Virus genome (UHGV): UHGV-0179250
Direction: 5' to 3' (one strand)
Length of the DNA: 26,811 nucleotides
Origin: a virus
Shown here one piece after another: positions 4,660 to 16,422 of the stretch. The translations under genes and the position numbers were made by a program. The number at the start of each line of letters is the position of its first letter. Within the stretch, counting starts at the first letter, position 1. Below the pieces are notes generated by a model, which saw only the letters and a program-made list of their open reading frames with translations, did no database searches and was not told the origin of the DNA.

Positions 4660-5142
4660 ATGTCAGGACCCCCGAAAACCCCGCCACGCCTGCATTTGAT
4701 ACGAGGCAACCCCTCAAAGCGCCCCGTTAAAGACTCCAAAAAAACCGCTAAAAAGGACGAAAAAGGTCTCCCTAAAATTCCGCAGCATTTAGGGGCGCAG
4801 GGGAAGTACTGGTTCAGGCGAATGGCAGAGGAGCTGAATGCGGAAGGGATCATTTCTCAGCTTGATGCGCGTGCACTCGAGTTGCTGGTGGAAGCCTACA
4901 CCGAATACCGGCATCACTGCGAAATACTCGATGTTGAGGGTTATACCTACCGCACGGAAACGCAGAATGGCGATGTGATGATCAAGGCACATCCGGCTGC
5001 GGCGATGAAAGCGGATGCCTGGAAGCGGATCCGGGCGATGCTTGCAGAGTTTGGTATGTCACCGGCAAGCCGGGCGAAAGTAAATACCGCCGGACCGGAT
5101 GATGTTGATCCGCTGGCGGAACTTTTAAAAGCGAGAGACTGA
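4660..5142 (+). CDS. Terminase small subunit (P27 family)
   Basis: N-terminal ...LIRGNPSKRP... motif characteristic of the P27 family; stop overlaps the large terminase start. Confidence 0.8.
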   Translation: MSGPPKTPPRLHLIRGNPSKRPVKDSKKTAKKDEKGLPKIPQHLGAQGKYWFRRMAEELNAEGIISQLDARALELLVEAYTEYRHHCEILDVEGYTYRTETQNGDVMIKAHPAAAMKADAWKRIRAMLAEFGMSPASRAKVNTAGPDDVDPLAELLKARD

Positions 5143-6899
5143 TGGCAAAAGTGGCTGACGGGATCCGCTACGCCGAACGTGTTGTTGCAGGAGAAATTGT
5201 CGCTGGCGAATTTGTCCGTCTGGCCTGCCAGCGTTTTCTTGATGATCTGAAGTACGGCGAAGAGCGGGGGATTTATTTCAGTGAACCCCGTGCGCAGCAC
5301 ATCCTGAATTTCTACAAATTTGTGCCCCATGTAAAAGGGGCGCTGGCAGGTCAGCCCATTGAACTGATGGACTGGCATGTATTTATCCTCATTAATATTT
5401 TTGGTTTTGTCATTCCGCTGGTCAATGAAGAGACCGGGGAAGTTGTCATGCGCAGCGATGGCAGCAGACGTCCGGTGATGGTGCGCCGGTTCCGGACGGC
5501 GTACAACGAAGTCGCCCGTAAAAACGCAAAATCAACCCTGTCATCGGGTATCGGCCTGTATATGACGGGGGCAGATGGTGAAGGCGGTGCTGAGGTGTAT
5601 TCAGCCGCAACCACGCGTGACCAGGCCAGAATTGTGTTTGAAGACGCCAAAAATATGGTCAGAAAAGCCCGGTCGACACTCGGGCGATTGTTTGATTTCA
5701 ACAAGCTGGCGATTTACCAGGAGCAGAGCGCATCAAAATTTGAACCGCTTTCCTCGGATGCAAACAACCTGGACGGTCTGAACATCCACTGCGCCATTAT
5801 TGATGAGCTGCATGCACATAAAACCCGCGATGTGTGGGACGTTCTGGAAACGGCAACCGGTGCCCGTCTGCAGTCCCTGTTATTTGGTATCACCACGGCG
5901 GGCTTTAACAAGGAAGGGATTTGTTACGAGCAACGCGATTACGCCATCAAGGTATTGCGAGGCTATAACAGCGACGTGGAGGGCGCGGTAAAAGATGATT
6001 CCTACTTTGCGATTATTTACACGCTCGATGAGGGAGATGATCCGTTTGATGAAACGGTCTGGCAGAAAGCGAATCCCGGACTGGGCATCTGTAAACGCTG
6101 GGATGATCTGCGTCGTCTGGCGAAAAAAGCGAAAGAACAGGTCTCTGCGCGGGTGAATTTTTTTACCAAACACATGAATGTGTGGGTAACAGCAGAGTCT
6201 GCCTGGATGGACATGATTAAGTGGGAGAAGTGTGAATACATTGCCCCACGACATGAGCTGAAAACGTATCCCATGTGGGTCGGCGTTGACCTTGCTCATA
6301 AGATTGATATCTGTGCGGCGGCAAAACTCTGGCGAACGGATAACGGGCATGTTCATGCCGATTTTAAATTCTGGCTTCCGGAAGGACGGCTGGAACGATG
6401 CTCGCGGCAGCAGGCAGAACTTTACCGGAAGTGGGCGGAGATGGATAAGCTCATCCTGACGGATGGTGATGTTATCGATCATGCTCAGATAAAAAGTGAC
6501 TTACTGGAATGGATTGGCGGTGAAAACCTCAGGGAACTGGGATTTGACCCGTGGAGTGCAATGCAGTTCAGTCTGGCTCTGGCTGAAGAAGGGATATCGC
6601 TGGTGGAAGTTCCGCAGACGGTCCGCAATCTGTCAGAGGCCATGAAGGAAACGGAATCACTGGTCTATGCCGGGCGTTTCCATCACAGCAATCACCCGGT
6701 CATGAACTGGATGATGTCTAACGTTACGGTAAAACCGGACAAAAACGACAATATCTTCCCGAACAAATCCACGCCTGAAGCCAAAATCGACGGCCCTGTT
6801 GCGATGTTTACAGCAATGAGCCGGATGCTGGTCAATGGCGGTGAACCGGAGCCGGATCTGTCTGAACACCTGATTAGTGTTGGTATCCGCTCGCTTTAA
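5142..6899 (+). CDS. Terminase large subunit
   Basis: 585 aa; position between small terminase and portal; ATPase-like N-terminal half and nuclease-like C-terminal half by composition. Confidence 0.9.
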
Positions 6900-11473: not shown

Positions 11474-12033
11474 AACTGACAACAATAATTGCGGCGTTGC
11501 GTGAGCGATGCCCGCGTTTTGATAATCGGGTTGGTGGCGCGGCGCAGTTTAAGGCGATCCCTGATGCCGGAAAACTGCGACTGCCTGCTGCCTATGTTGT
11601 CCCCTCTGACGATGCGCCGGGGGAACAAAAATCACAGACCGATTACTGGCAGGATTTGACAGAAGGCTTCTCCGTTATTGTTGTGCTCAGCAATGAGCGT
11701 GATGAAAAAGGGCAGTGGGCAGCCTATGACGCCGTTCATGATGTCCGGAGAGAACTCTGGAAAGCCCTGCTTGGATGGATGCCGGATCCGCAGGGGGGCG
11801 AGATTGTTTATGCCGGTGGCACCCTGCTGGATCTGAACCGTTACGAACTGTATTACCAGTTTGATTTTACGGCGAAGTATGAAATCACGGAAGAAGACAC
11901 GCGACAGGCAGAGGACGTGAATGCCCTGCCGGATTTATCCCTGCTGAGTATTGATGTGGATTACATCGATCCTGGTACTGGCCCGGATGGTGACATTGAG
12001 CACCATCTGGAAATGCGTTTCCCTCAGAAATAA
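11470..12033 (+). CDS. Virion neck/tail completion protein (Mu gpK-like position)
   Basis: 187 aa, acidic; translationally coupled; immediately upstream of the sheath cluster. Confidence 0.5.
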   Translation: MKLTTIIAALRERCPRFDNRVGGAAQFKAIPDAGKLRLPAAYVVPSDDAPGEQKSQTDYWQDLTEGFSVIVVLSNERDEKGQWAAYDAVHDVRRELWKALLGWMPDPQGGEIVYAGGTLLDLNRYELYYQFDFTAKYEITEEDTRQAEDVNALPDLSLLSIDVDYIDPGTGPDGDIEHHLEMRFPQK

Positions 12034-12042
12034 GAGTCCCTC

Positions 12043-12204
12043 ATGTTTGTGAAACCCCTGAAAGGGCGGTCAGTTCCTGACCCTGCCCGTGGAGACCTTT
12101 TGCCTTCTGACGGGCGAAATGTGGAAGAAAGCAGCTACTGGCTCCGCCGTATAGCGGCGGGTGATGTGGTACGTGTTAAACAGGATGAGGTTAAAAAATC
12201 ATGA
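12043..12204 (+). CDS. Small DUF2635-like protein (53 aa) preceding the tail sheath gene
   Basis: ORF MFVKPLKGRSVPDPARGDLLPSDGRN... not in the supplied track (<60 aa); its stop overlaps the sheath start (ATGA); similar small proteins precede sheath genes in Mu-like tail modules (from memory). Confidence 0.45.
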   Translation: MFVKPLKGRSVPDPARGDLLPSDGRNVEESSYWLRRIAAGDVVRVKQDEVKKS

Positions 12205-13697
12205 CAATAAGTTTTAATACTGTTCCGTCAGACACGCTGGTGCCGTTGTTCTATGCTGAGATGGACAATTCTGCGGCAAATACAGCAGTGACCAGCGCGC
12301 CTGCATTATTGATCGGGCATGCCAGCAACGATGCCGCCATTGAGGTTAACAGCCTGGTGCTGATGCCGTCGGCAGATTATGCCCGTCAGATTTGTGGGGC
12401 CGGTAGCCAGCTGGCGCGTATGGTTGACGTCTACCGTCAGACAGATCCTTTCGGTGAACTGTATGTTATTGCAGTACCGGAAGCCAGAGGGGCGGCGGCG
12501 ACGGTCAGGGTGACAGTTACCGGAGAAGCAGAGGAAAGCGGCACCCTGAGTCTGTATGTCGGGCGCTCCCGTGTACAGGTGCCTGTGGTGAATGGCGATG
12601 ATGCTACTGCGGTTGCCACCGCGATTAAGGAAGCGGTAAACGGGGTTATCACCCTGCCGTTTGCGGCGTCATCTGATGCAGGTGTGGTGACGCTGACTGC
12701 CCGCCATAAGGGGCTGTATGGTAACGAGTTGCCTGTCTGCCTGAATTATTATGGTTCTGGTGGTGGTGAGATTCTGCCTGCGGGGCTTCAGGTCGTGACG
12801 GAAGCCGGAACTGCGGGTAGCGACGCGCCTGATCTTACCGCCGCTGTTGCTGCTATGGGCGATGAAGCATTCGACTTTATCGGTCTGCCGTTCAACGATG
12901 CCGCCTCCATCAATATGATGATGACCGAAATGAATGACAGCAGCGGTCGCTGGAGTTATGCGCGCCAGTTATACGGGCATGTCTATACCGCAAAACTGGG
13001 GACGTTGTCAGAGCTGGTTGATACCGGAGATATGCATAATCAGCAACATATCACGCTTGCCGGTTACGAAAAAGAAACCCAGACACCTGTCGATGAACTG
13101 GTTGCCAGTCGTCTTGCCCGTGAAGCGGTATTTATCCGCAATGACCCGGCCCGTCCGACACAGACGGGGGAACTGGTGGGGATGCTTCCGGCACCGAAAG
13201 GTAAGCGATTCATTATGACCGAGCAGCAGACCCTTTTATCTCATGGTGTGGCGACGACTTATGTGGAAGGCGGCACGTTGCGGATCCAGCGTTCCGTAAC
13301 CACCTACAAAAAGAATGCATATGGCGTGGCAGACAACAGTTATCTGGACAGTGAAACACTGCATACCAGCGCATACGTTCTTCGCAAACTGAAATCGGTC
13401 ATCACAGGCAAGTACGGACGTCACAAGCTGGCAAATGATGGTACCCGTTTTGGTCCGGGGCAGGCGATTGTTACTCCTGCCGTTATCAAAGGGGAGCTTC
13501 TGGCGACATATCGTCAGATGGAGCGTGCCGGTATTGTGGAAAATTACGATCTGTTTAAACAGTATCTGACAGTTGAGCGTGATGCGGATAACCCGAACCG
13601 ACTGAACACGCTGTTCCCGCCGGATTATGTTAACCAGTTACGTGTCTTTGCGGTGGTTAACCAGTTCCGTCTCCAGTATTCAGAGGAGTCAGCATAA
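12201..13697 (+). CDS. Contractile tail sheath protein
   Basis: 498 aa, Mu gpL-like size; followed by tube, chaperone and tape-measure genes. Confidence 0.85.
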   Translation: MTISFNTVPSDTLVPLFYAEMDNSAANTAVTSAPALLIGHASNDAAIEVNSLVLMPSADYARQICGAGSQLARMVDVYRQTDPFGELYVIAVPEARGAAATVRVTVTGEAEESGTLSLYVGRSRVQVPVVNGDDATAVATAIKEAVNGVITLPFAASSDAGVVTLTARHKGLYGNELPVCLNYYGSGGGEILPAGLQVVTEAGTAGSDAPDLTAAVAAMGDEAFDFIGLPFNDAASINMMMTEMNDSSGRWSYARQLYGHVYTAKLGTLSELVDTGDMHNQQHITLAGYEKETQTPVDELVASRLAREAVFIRNDPARPTQTGELVGMLPAPKGKRFIMTEQQTLLSHGVATTYVEGGTLRIQRSVTTYKKNAYGVADNSYLDSETLHTSAYVLRKLKSVITGKYGRHKLANDGTRFGPGQAIVTPAVIKGELLATYRQMERAGIVENYDLFKQYLTVERDADNPNRLNTLFPPDYVNQLRVFAVVNQFRLQYSEESA

Positions 13698-14053
13698 TGG
13701 CAAAGATCGCCGGAACCTGTTTTTTTAAAGTGGATGGTCAGCAGTTATCGCTGACAGGTGGAATTGAAGTGCCGATGAACACCAATGTCCGGGATGATGT
13801 CGTCGGCATGGCTGGTGATGTGGATTACAAGGAGACCTGGCGGTCACCTTACGTTAAGGGCACGTTTAAAGTGCCCAAAAATTTTCCGGTCGACAAAATT
13901 ACCACCTCAGATCAGATGACGATTACTGCCGAGCTGGCAAACGGCATGGTGTATGTGCTTTCGGCTGCATGGCTGCACGGAGAGGCTAACCATAATGCCG
14001 AAGAAGGCACGGTAGATCTTGAATTCCACGGCGAAGAGGGAGGGTATCAGTAA
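13697..14053 (+). CDS. Tail tube protein
   Basis: 118 aa; directly downstream of the sheath with overlapping stop/start. Confidence 0.75.
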   Translation: MAKIAGTCFFKVDGQQLSLTGGIEVPMNTNVRDDVVGMAGDVDYKETWRSPYVKGTFKVPKNFPVDKITTSDQMTITAELANGMVYVLSAAWLHGEANHNAEEGTVDLEFHGEEGGYQ

Positions 14054-14388
14054 TGGCAATGAGCGTTACAGAAATTGTTTTAAAAAAACCGGTGACAGCG
14101 CATAACGAAATGCTGCATGTGCTGGAGTTGCGCGAGCCCACGTATGACGAAATCGAGGCGCTGGGTTTTCCTTTCATTATTTCCGGTGAAGGCAGTATTA
14201 AACTGGACAGCCAGGTGGCACTGAAATATATCCCGTTGCTGGCGGGGATCCCGCGTTCATCGGCGGCGCAGATGGCAAAACTGGATATTTTTAAGACCAG
14301 CATGCAGATCCTGCGTTTTTTTACCCAGTCGGAGACGGGAAGCACCTCCGGAAACGACTCTACAATGTTGCCTGGTTCTGGAAACTGA
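14053..14388 (+). CDS. Tail assembly chaperone (zero-frame product)
   Basis: 111 aa between tube and tape measure; contains a slippery heptamer near its 3' end. Confidence 0.65.
   Translation: MAMSVTEIVLKKPVTAHNEMLHVLELREPTYDEIEALGFPFIISGEGSIKLDSQVALKYIPLLAGIPRSSAAQMAKLDIFKTSMQILRFFTQSETGSTSGNDSTMLPGSGN
14316..14322 (+). promoter_or_regulatory. Predicted -1 programmed ribosomal frameshift site (T TTT TTT) in the tail chaperone gene
   Basis: Heptamer in X_XXY_YYZ register in the zero frame; the -1 frame is open from 14322 to a TGA at 14478-14480; stem-loop (AGTCG...CGACT) begins 5 nt downstream. Confidence 0.5.
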
Positions 14389-14472
14389 ATCCACTGGAGC
14401 TGCGACGGGTGGCTATTTCGCAGTTTACAGAACTGGAAGCCGAGGCCGTCCGCATTAACGAGGAGATGAAGC

Positions 14473-16422
14473 ATGGCTGACAGTTTTCAGCTGAAGGCGA
14501 TCATCACTGCCGTGGATAAGGTATCGGCACCGCTGAAAGGAATGCAGCGCCAGCTGAAAGGTTTTAAAAAGGAGTTTGCCAGCCTGTCACTGGGCGCAGC
14601 GGGTGCCGGAACCGCAGTACTGGGAGCGCTGGCGCTCCCGGTCAAATCTGCCATTGCCCTTGAATCAAAAATGGCGGATGTCCGGAAAGTGGTGGATGGT
14701 CTGGATACGCCGGAAGCGTTTAAGGCAATGACGGAACAGGTGCGCGACCTGTCAACAGAACTGCCCATGTCGGCGGAAGGTATCGCCGAAATCGTGGCGG
14801 CGGGTGGTCAGGCTGGCATCGCCCGTGACGAGCTGATGCAGTTTACTGACGACGCCGTGAAGATGGGGGTGGCCTTTGACACCACGGCGGAAGAATCCGG
14901 TCAGATGATGGCACAGTGGCGCACTGCCTTTAAACTGACACAGGGAGAGGTGGCAGGACTTGCGGATAAGATTAACTATCTTGGTAATACCGGTCCTGCA
15001 AGTGCGAAAAAGATTTCTGATGTTGTGACCCGTATTGGCCCTTTAGGCGGTGTTGCGGGTGTGGCCTCCGGAGAAATTGCCGCAATGGGGGCAACCATTG
15101 CCGGAATGGGGGTGGAATCAGAAATTGCGGCGACGGGGATAAAGAATTTTATGCTGTCGCTGACAGCGGGGAATTCTGCCACCAAATCGCAGAAAAAAGC
15201 GTTTCGCCTGTTGCGCATTGACCCGAAAAAGCTGGCGGCGGATATGCAGAAAGATGCCCGGGGTGCCATGCTGCATGTACTGGATTCTCTGGCGAAAGTG
15301 CCGAAAGAAAAACAGGCTGCAGTGCTGAATGCGCTGTTCGGGAAGGAATCTCTGGGAGCCATCGCGCCGCTGCTCACGAATCTGGATTTGTTGCGAACCA
15401 ATTTTAATCGTGTGGCGGATGCGCAGCAGTATGGCGGCTCAATGCAGAAAGAATATGTCGCCCGTGCCGCGACGACGGAAAACCAGTTGTTGCTGCTGCA
15501 GAACCAGATCAATGCGATTTCTTCCACGCTGGGAGAAACCTTCCTGCCTTCGCTCAATGAAGGCATAAAAGAGATGAAGCCTTTTCTGGAAGAAGTGCGC
15601 ACGTTTGTCAGAGAAAACCCTGAAGTCGTAAAAACCATCGCGAAAACGGGGCTGGCACTGCTGACATTTGGTGTTGCCATTGGCTCGCTGTCGCGGATGG
15701 GAAAAATCCTTAGTGGCGTGATGAATATGACGCCGGCAAAGGGGCTCATTACGTTACTGGTGGCGGGGGCGTATCTCATTATTGATAACTGGGAAACGGT
15801 CGGGCCGGTTGTGAAAAAAGTCTGGCAGGAGGTTGATCAGGTTGTCAGAGCAATGGGGGGATGGGAACAGGCAGTAAAAACAATAGCAACGGTTTCTGCC
15901 CTGTATATTGGTGTGAAGGCGGTGGCAAGCATTCGTGCAGCAATAGCCGCTCAGAATCAATGGACAGCGGCGGCAGGTAAAACATCCCTGAAATTAAAGG
16001 GCCTCGGAAAGATCAGCCTCATTGGGGGATTGCTTGAGCTCGGCATGATGGCGCAGGAGTTTGAAAAAGAACATCCCTGGCTTGTTAAAAATTTTGTGGC
16101 TGATGCGCTGAACAGTGGATTTGGTCTGAATGATAAGTTCGACGAGTGGGGCAAACAGTTCCATGATTTTGTCTATGACATGACCGGATGGCAGATGCCA
16201 CGTGGTGATGGGTATTTATCTCCAGAAAAACGCTACACCCCGAATGTATCACTGGAAAGGAATCAGCTGTTAAACCTTTCATCTTCACCGGCAACCCGCA
16301 GCGAACTTAAGGTGACGTTTGACAACGCGCCGCCTGGAATGCGTGTCATCGATTTGCCGAAAACAGGCGATCCCTTTATGAAAATCACCCATGACGTTGG
16401 GTATTCACCTTTCAGGCGTTAA
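14473..16422 (+). CDS. Tail tape measure protein
   Basis: 649 aa, Ala/Gly-rich with internal hydrophobic segments; follows the chaperone pair. Confidence 0.8.
   Translation: MADSFQLKAIITAVDKVSAPLKGMQRQLKGFKKEFASLSLGAAGAGTAVLGALALPVKSAIALESKMADVRKVVDGLDTPEAFKAMTEQVRDLSTELPMSAEGIAEIVAAGGQAGIARDELMQFTDDAVKMGVAFDTTAEESGQMMAQWRTAFKLTQGEVAGLADKINYLGNTGPASAKKISDVVTRIGPLGGVAGVASGEIAAMGATIAGMGVESEIAATGIKNFMLSLTAGNSATKSQKKAFRLLRIDPKKLAADMQKDARGAMLHVLDSLAKVPKEKQAAVLNALFGKESLGAIAPLLTNLDLLRTNFNRVADAQQYGGSMQKEYVARAATTENQLLLLQNQINAISSTLGETFLPSLNEGIKEMKPFLEEVRTFVRENPEVVKTIAKTGLALLTFGVAIGSLSRMGKILSGVMNMTPAKGLITLLVAGAYLIIDNWETVGPVVKKVWQEVDQVVRAMGGWEQAVKTIATVSALYIGVKAVASIRAAIAAQNQWTAAAGKTSLKLKGLGKISLIGGLLELGMMAQEFEKEHPWLVKNFVADALNSGFGLNDKFDEWGKQFHDFVYDMTGWQMPRGDGYLSPEKRYTPNVSLERNQLLNLSSSPATRSELKVTFDNAPPGMRVIDLPKTGDPFMKITHDVGYSPFRR

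Follow-up and report, generated by a model that had tools for sequence, protein, structure and literature searches.

Does the short tail assembly chaperone gene of the virus genome UHGV-0179250 yield one protein or two? The stretch of DNA analysed in this work (26,811 nucleotides, hereafter the window) carries a chaperone open reading frame (ORF) between the tail tube and tape measure genes, which is the position of the G/GT type (coordinates in Table 1). Near its end, this ORF contains a run of seven T residues, T_TTT_TTT, on which ribosomes might slip back by one base and enter a second, overlapping reading frame. The sequence and its relatives strongly support a G/GT-type two-product chaperone, predicted to arise by a -1 shift at the T run. 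Overall, we consider it very likely that this phiP27/SfV-type prophage, whose contractile tail is Mu-like, makes its chaperone pair by a -1 slip at T_TTT_TTT.

The chaperone ORF encodes 111 amino acids, and its start overlaps the stop codon of the tube gene as TAATG. It matched the Pfam family PF10109 Phage_TAC_7 (E = 6e-7, above the curated cut-off), which is described as 'tail assembly chaperone proteins E, or 41 or 14', and phrog_166 'tail protein' (E = 6e-28). A RefSeq gene 99% identical to it is named 'phage tail assembly protein'. The T7 run corresponds to codons 88-90 of 111, and 21 sense codons remain before the zero-frame stop, in agreement with a preliminary description of this DNA that had placed the heptamer in the correct register about 22 codons before the stop. 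T_TTT_TTT fits the rule of tandem tRNA re-pairing, and heptamers of the type H_HH.U_UU.Y rank among the most shift-prone in E. coli (PMC4066793). The -1 frame is open from position 14295; after the slip it would run for 52 codons (14322-14477) to the TGA at 14478-14480, and this stop overlaps the tape measure ATG at 14473 as ATGGCTGA, also as previously described. The ribosome-binding site of the tape measure gene (GAGGAG, 14460-14465) falls within the extension.

The extension peptide would be YPVGDGKHLRKRLYNVAWFWKLNPLELRRVAISQFTELEAEAVRINEEMKHG, giving a predicted fusion of 90 + 52 = 142 amino acids (approximately 16.2 kDa, compared to approximately 12.1 kDa for the short form) with the C-terminus ...HG; about 140 amino acids had been proposed. 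The junction suggested in the preliminary description (QILRFF-FYPVGDG) has one Phe too many and needs correcting: a ribosomal slip and the insertion of a U both give ...QILR-FF-YPVGDGK..., that is, a predicted junction at ...QILRFF/YPVGDGK.... The corrected junction matters for the detection of the fusion by mass spectrometry, where the tryptic junction peptide would be FFYPVGDGK (monoisotopic mass 1028.497 Da) and the short form would be recognised by its C-terminal peptide, FFTQSETGSTSGNDSTMLPGSGN (2320.975 Da). The first ATG, GTG or TTG codon of the -1 frame is the GTG at 14409, past the conserved WFWKLNPLE core; consequently, only a change of frame could lead to expression of the extension.

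How unusual is such an arrangement by chance? The window harbours 43 in-register XXXYYYZ heptamers in 8201 codons. The median open run of the -1 frame after a heptamer is 12 codons, and 5 of the 43 runs reach at least 52 codons; the probability of 52 open codons, calculated from the -1-frame stop frequency of the window itself, is 0.027. Four heptamers have a -1 run that passes the stop of their own ORF, T_TTT_TTT at 14316 among them. The other three lie in a spurious ORF (953-1297), at 5124, where the -1 run enters the large terminase gene (TerL), and at 12018 (T_TTC_CCT, with an 18-codon -1 run). On the window alone, the case is unusual and suggestive, but not decisive.

T_TTA_AAA at 5124-5130 is in register 18 nucleotides before the stop of the small terminase gene (4660-5142), and its -1 frame is the large terminase gene (5142-6899), such that a slip would give a TerS-TerL fusion; this site is probably a coincidence of the ATGA overlap of the two genes. 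The chaperone ORF has three further in-register heptamers (T_TTA_AAA, A_AAA_AAA and G_GGT_TTT, at 14079-14088 and 14163-14169). The -1 frame shuts 5 codons past the A7 run, and all three are absent from the SfIV and ST64B loci; they are therefore not expected to be functional.

Equivalent loci were gathered from annotated phages (phiP27, SfI, SfIV, SfV, ST64B, vB_EcoM-720R4, Pantoea AH07, Edwardsiella EPP-1 and Yersinia YeP1), from one genome per species and from IMG/VR. Five of the 129 loci obtained, which are treated below with the variants, were visibly damaged or altered and were set aside; the 124 intact loci correspond to 81 distinct DNAs and 48 distinct extension peptides. TTTTTT[T/C] was present at the same place and in the same phase in 124 of 124, the T run being six long (T6C) in 21 of the 81 distinct relatives. 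In all 124, moreover, the -1 extension is 52-59 codons long and stops at or on the tape measure start, and the overlap of the tape measure ATG with the extension stop recurs in most of them. The intact loci come from E. coli, Shigella, Salmonella, Yersinia, Edwardsiella, Pantoea, Mixta, Symbiopectobacterium, Derxia and Methylococcales, the most distant being those of Derxia gummosa (Betaproteobacteria) and of a Methylococcales metagenome-assembled genome. The preliminary description had recognised the two-product chaperone strategy of long-tailed phages and had looked to the conservation of the -1 frame in related phages. Both points are borne out by the PF10109 match, the gene position, the heptamer and extension kept in every intact locus, the conserved -1 peptide and the lack of an earlier start. 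We regard these comparative sequence data as decisive for the predicted frameshift site, unlike the chance expectation calculated from the window alone.

The heptamer is conserved as nucleotides. Its X base was T in all 31 representatives (less than 93% identical to each other), the codon holding this base encodes R, N, G, S or V depending on the lineage, and the background frequency of T at third positions for these residues is 0.36. The presence of T in 31 of 31 across five residue contexts indicates nucleotide-level conservation that goes beyond the Phe-Phe dipeptide.

The extension peptide is kept where whole fusions are just 35-42% identical, with the motifs A-x-(F/Y)-W-(K/R)-(L/I/M)-N-P and A-x-R-I. 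It is conserved as much as the N-terminal domain, and its invariant residues include W110, N113, P114, R134 and I135. Pairs drawn from 54 distinct sequences whose extension has 52 codons differed at -1 codon positions 1, 2 and 3 by 0.16, 0.09 and 0.42 respectively in the stretch annotated as intergenic, and 0.24, 0.21 and 0.34 in the 64 nucleotides that overlap the short ORF. The most variable position of the overlap is zero-frame position 2, indicating that the -1 frame is the constrained one. Compared to SfIV, there were 6, 3 and 25 substitutions at -1 positions 1, 2 and 3. The length of the zero-frame tail past the site ranges between 3 residues (SfV) and 21 (the window) in this group, and the tail looks like a by-product of the overlap. 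The -1 peptide is conserved and, by these substitution patterns, under purifying selection. The +1-frame ORF at 14225-14456 (77 codons here, 10-56 in relatives) and the antisense ORF at 13986-14474 are not conserved and have no family match.

The extension matched phrog_32181 (E = 6e-6) and phrog_11318, two small families of 'unknown function' (63-68 amino acids) that are probably the extension fragment called as an ORF. Searches of the fusion and extension against NCBIfam and Pfam gave nothing beyond PF10109 on the N-terminal part, and the extension had no Pfam match even at E up to 10. A sequence search of PDB returned noise only, and Foldseek against PDB nothing significant. The structure was considered using the AlphaFold model of P0001, a natural in-frame fusion 92% identical to the window fusion. 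Its N-terminal domain is modelled with confidence (residues 11-90, predicted local distance difference test (pLDDT) of approximately 90), and the extension is helical with low confidence.

The sequence and its conservation suggest the following mechanism. Most ribosomes would translate the short ORF to its own stop and release the 111-amino acid chaperone. A minority would slip back by one base, with two tRNA-Phe re-pairing on the heptamer, and would then read 52 codons in the -1 frame to give a 142-amino acid fusion that ends on the tape measure start codon. If the pair works like lambda G/GT and P2 E/E+E', the tape measure protein would be coated by the N-terminal domain common to both forms, the extension would bring in the tube or a different tail subunit, and both forms would be expected to stay out of the virion.

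Several observations weigh against this proposal. No stimulator was found, whether as a downstream structure, an upstream Shine-Dalgarno-like sequence or an Rfam match. A stimulator-free reporter gave 0.33% frameshifting on UUUUUUU and 0.12% on UUUUUUC (PMC4066793 supplement). As 0.33% is well below the ratio of approximately 1:30 reported for lambda, context or a second mechanism may contribute, and frameshifting at the window site may be low or context-dependent. The similarity of the extension to P2 E' is weak (hhalign probability 13%), and its residues 94-125 have pLDDT values below 50 in the P0001 model. Lastly, the sequence cannot distinguish ribosomal from transcriptional slippage, as both give the same protein.

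The search for stimulators covered the sequences on both sides of the T run. A stem-loop starting 5 nucleotides past the heptamer, as claimed in the preliminary description, was not upheld. The interrupted stem (14327-14331 with 14355-14359 and 14336-14339 with 14347-14350) was seen in one minimum free energy (MFE) fold (-10.6 kcal/mol), and folding was no better than that of shuffled sequences (z = +0.09, +0.70 and -1.2 for 50, 60 and 78 nucleotides respectively). The stem was not kept in 24 relatives, where it pairs in 53% of cells, not above shuffles; RNAalifold predicted neither pairs nor a consensus downstream structure among the relatives. The downstream folds of 16 relatives had a mean z of approximately -0.7, with unrelated structures. 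Upstream Shine-Dalgarno-like sequences were absent from the subgroup of the window, with scattered GGTG or GGAG elsewhere, and Rfam gave no match at E up to 1.

A different hairpin exists in the SfV-type (T6C) relatives. This near-perfect hairpin (GCGCCAG-CTA-CTGGCGC) is located approximately 45-65 nucleotides past the heptamer (locus L031:1503-1521 and its equivalents), within the codons for C-A-S-Y-W-R, and no part of the locus has a lower mean local folding energy (-10.3 kcal/mol). In loci L029 and L030 the hairpin is disrupted, the subgroup of the window lacks it, and it is too distant for a classical stimulator.

The alternative that survives best is that the fusion is made mainly by transcriptional slippage. 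RNA polymerase would add one U on the T6-T7 tract, aided in some relatives by an abutting nascent hairpin, and the resulting U8 mRNA would be read as R-F-F-Y-P.... The site is a homopolymer, and a genomic T8 (locus L051) does give an in-frame fusion. E. coli genes are depleted of UUUUUUU in every reading frame, and slippage may be the reason (PMC4066793); stimulator-free ribosomal frameshifting on U7 is low in reporters. In some T6C relatives, moreover, the T run is abutted by a hairpin, with a local MFE that places 9th among 350 windows. However, productive slippage in bacteria has been described for runs of approximately 9 A or T (PMC5009743), while the run is 7 here and 6 in the T6C relatives. 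The upstream hairpin of the window (14302-14316, 6 pairs), considered as a terminator or slippage stimulator, was rejected as weak (-4.8 kcal/mol, z -1.2). A scan for terminator-like hairpins gave a match rate equal to that of shuffles, and the T6C subgroup had no consensus structure or covariation upstream. We therefore consider it unlikely that the long form comes largely from RNA polymerase slippage. If it did, a widespread chaperone family would use transcriptional recoding on an unusually short tract.

Ribosomal slippage at the T run remains our preferred reading also when compared with three further explanations. The -1 ORF could be a separate small gene with its own start, as some gene callers call a small ORF here in some phages (phrog_32181 and phrog_11318). 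However, the GTG at 14409 would yield just 23 amino acids, missing the conserved YNVAWFWKLNPLE core, while the conservation of the peptide begins right at the heptamer and the heptamer is conserved at a synonymous site, making a separate gene very unlikely. Alternatively, the true gene could be a single 142-amino acid ORF, broken by a T7 homopolymer error or by an inactivating mutation, and in-frame versions are indeed known (T8 in L051, 'RFY' in P0006 and a G insertion in the Shigella flexneri sequence P0004). By contrast, the two-frame layout occurs in 124 independent loci, complete genomes and isolated phages included, and it is kept whether the run is T7 or T6C; in-frame versions are uncommon and derive from different indels. 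Such an artefact or pseudogene is highly improbable. Finally, although 52 open codons have a probability of approximately 0.03 per site, heptamers alone are common and the chaperone ORF carries three others in register, a functionless co-occurrence of the T run with an open -1 frame is scarcely credible, being contradicted by the conserved site, phase, end point and peptide and by the third-position substitution bias.

In a Shigella flexneri lineage (L050:1201-1626; P0001-P0005), a single G insertion (CCGG to CCGGG), approximately 35 nucleotides past an intact T7 and equivalent to window position ~14350, runs the zero frame into the extension. This allele encodes a constitutive 142-amino acid fusion and no short form. 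P0004 was found on 661 contigs, one of them a 4.5-Mb chromosome. The insertion probably represents a defect that became fixed in a cryptic prophage, but the sequence doubles as a naturally occurring 'long form only' allele, and the P0004 lineage, if still building tails, would challenge the need for a low GT:G ratio. The T run itself is an indel hot spot. Locus L051 (1452-1460) has T8 and an in-frame fusion, P0006 (5 contigs) reads ...MRFYRLGDG..., with one Phe fewer and in frame, and several proteins from Logan assemblies switch frame around the T run. Some of these variants may be homopolymer sequencing errors. The copies from an Arsenophonus endosymbiont and 'Ca. Pantoea bathycoeliae' (L017, L023 and L034) have stops and frame breaks in the chaperone gene, indicating decaying prophages (pseudogenes).

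The fusion, or a joined coding sequence (CDS), was annotated in none of the 12 records of this phage group checked (phiP27, vB_EcoM-720R4, SfI, SfIV, SfV, ST64B, 118970_sal3, F1055, AH07, EPP-1, YeP1 and a RefSeq E. coli prophage). A conserved, predicted 142-amino acid tail assembly protein is thus missing from 12 of 12 records, and an 85-nucleotide stretch past the chaperone gene is shown there as intergenic though coding; the practical value of the finding lies in annotation. It also extends the known stimulator-free U_UUU_UUY sites by one, which is kept in both Gamma- and Betaproteobacteria. In the literature on frameshifting in phiP27, SfV, SfIV and ST64B that was covered, we found no paper describing the site; the survey of Xu et al. 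2004 lay outside this coverage and may list SfV, ST64B or phiP27.

The surroundings of the site are those of a phiP27-like prophage. Positions 13697-14700 are 97% identical to phage phiP27 and 98-99% identical to prophages of 51 complete E. coli genomes, while the left part of the window matches phiP27 in part (44% covered, 89% identity). The tail genes are ordered as sheath, tube, the 111-amino acid ORF and tape measure, followed by Mu gp43-like and gp44-like baseplate genes. The presence of the sheath gene indicates that the tail is contractile. Further to the left, between the DNA methylase and holin genes, the window has a tRNA-Gly(TCC) gene (761-835) and a strong intrinsic terminator (1197-1222; CCGCC...GGCGG and then T8). 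This slot is where the phiP27 record annotates stxA2e. The listed ORF at 953-1297 has no family match, crosses the terminator and is probably spurious.

Table 1. Features of the window around the predicted frameshift site, with the evidence on which each assignment is based.
Feature	Coordinates	Strand	Evidence
Tail sheath gene	12201..13697	+	Pfam Phage_sheath_1, Phage_sheath_1C, Phage_sheath_domII
Tail tube gene, directly upstream of the chaperone ORF	13697..14053	+	Pfam PF10618 Tail_tube, E = 1e-34
Short tail assembly chaperone ORF ('G'/E-like), 111 amino acids	14053..14388	+	PF10109, phrog_166
Slippery heptamer T_TTT_TTT in X_XXY_YYZ register (CGT TTT TTT ACC)	14316..14322	+	Sequence and conservation
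Predicted -1 frame extension ('T'/E'-like), 52 codons and then TGA	14322..14480	+	Sequence, peptide conservation, phrog_32181
Tape measure protein gene, 649 amino acids	14473..16422	+	Pfam PF10145 PhageMin_Tail, E = 5e-44

How does this locus compare with known systems? The stimulator-dependent bacterial systems dnaX and IS3/IS911 share tandem slippage on an X_XXY_YYZ heptamer with the predicted window site. However, these systems use an upstream Shine-Dalgarno-like sequence and/or a downstream hairpin or pseudoknot, none of which is detectable or conserved here.

Mu resembles the window in its surrounding tail genes, which are homologous (sheath L, tube M and the gp42-gp45 equivalents), and in a chaperone gene at the same position, but Mu is reported to use -2 frameshifting (PMC2628397, PMC5009743). 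The Mu gp41 protein has 144 amino acids, and its gene lacks an in-register XXXYYYZ heptamer (L011:3053-3632). The -1 frame overlapping the gp41 stop ends approximately 110 nucleotides short of the tape measure gene, and the +1/-2 frame stays open over 55 codons, closing 17 nucleotides ahead of the start of gp42. Shortly before this +1/-2 frame opens there is a GGGGGCGA stretch, consistent with the published -2 frameshift. A Mu-type -2 frameshift was considered for the window and rejected: the conserved extension is in the -1 frame, and the +1 ORF is neither conserved nor matched by any family. The comparison with 'Mu-like phages' advised in the preliminary description is sound when drawn with the SfV/ST64B/phiP27 group or with P2, whereas Mu itself, with no in-register heptamer and a -1 frame that closes early, does not fit it.

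Lambda G/GT arises by a -1 frameshift at G_GGA_AAG (Levin 1993; Xu 2004, 2013, 2014, summarised in PMC5009743), and its shared domain is proposed to bind the tape measure protein while the extension binds the tail subunit (PMC5009743). Lambda and the window have in common two products (predicted, for the window) with the same N-terminus, a gene between the major tail and tape measure genes and an extension without a start of its own. They differ in the heptamer and its tRNAs, in the non-contractile tail of lambda and in the Pfam family of the chaperone, and no sequence similarity is detectable between them.

The closest known system is E/E+E' of phage P2, in which a -1 frameshift occurs at T_TTT_TTG (Christie et al. 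2002, as cited in PMC3091744). P2 and the window both have a contractile tail and a PF10109 chaperone gene directly upstream of the tape measure gene. In both, the third base of a GGT/CGT-type codon (GGT TTT TTG in P2), approximately 85-90 codons into the gene, is the first of the heptamer, and the end of the long product overlaps the tape measure start. The P2 products have 91 and 142 amino acids (85 + 57 = 142), compared to 111 and a predicted 142 in the window. The literature on P2 reports no downstream hairpin (PMC3091744), and the window likewise gives no support for one. P2 E+E' aligns collinearly with the window fusion across the shift site, although the alignment is marginal (hhalign E = 0.002, probability 13%, 18% identity). 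The rest of the window tail module is Mu-like (gp43/DNA circulation and a gp44-type hub) rather than P2-like, and the P2 record annotates a joined CDS whereas none of the 12 records of the window group does. The chaperone locus of the window is an unannotated member of a textbook class and conceptually adds nothing beyond the G/GT and E/E+E' strategy.

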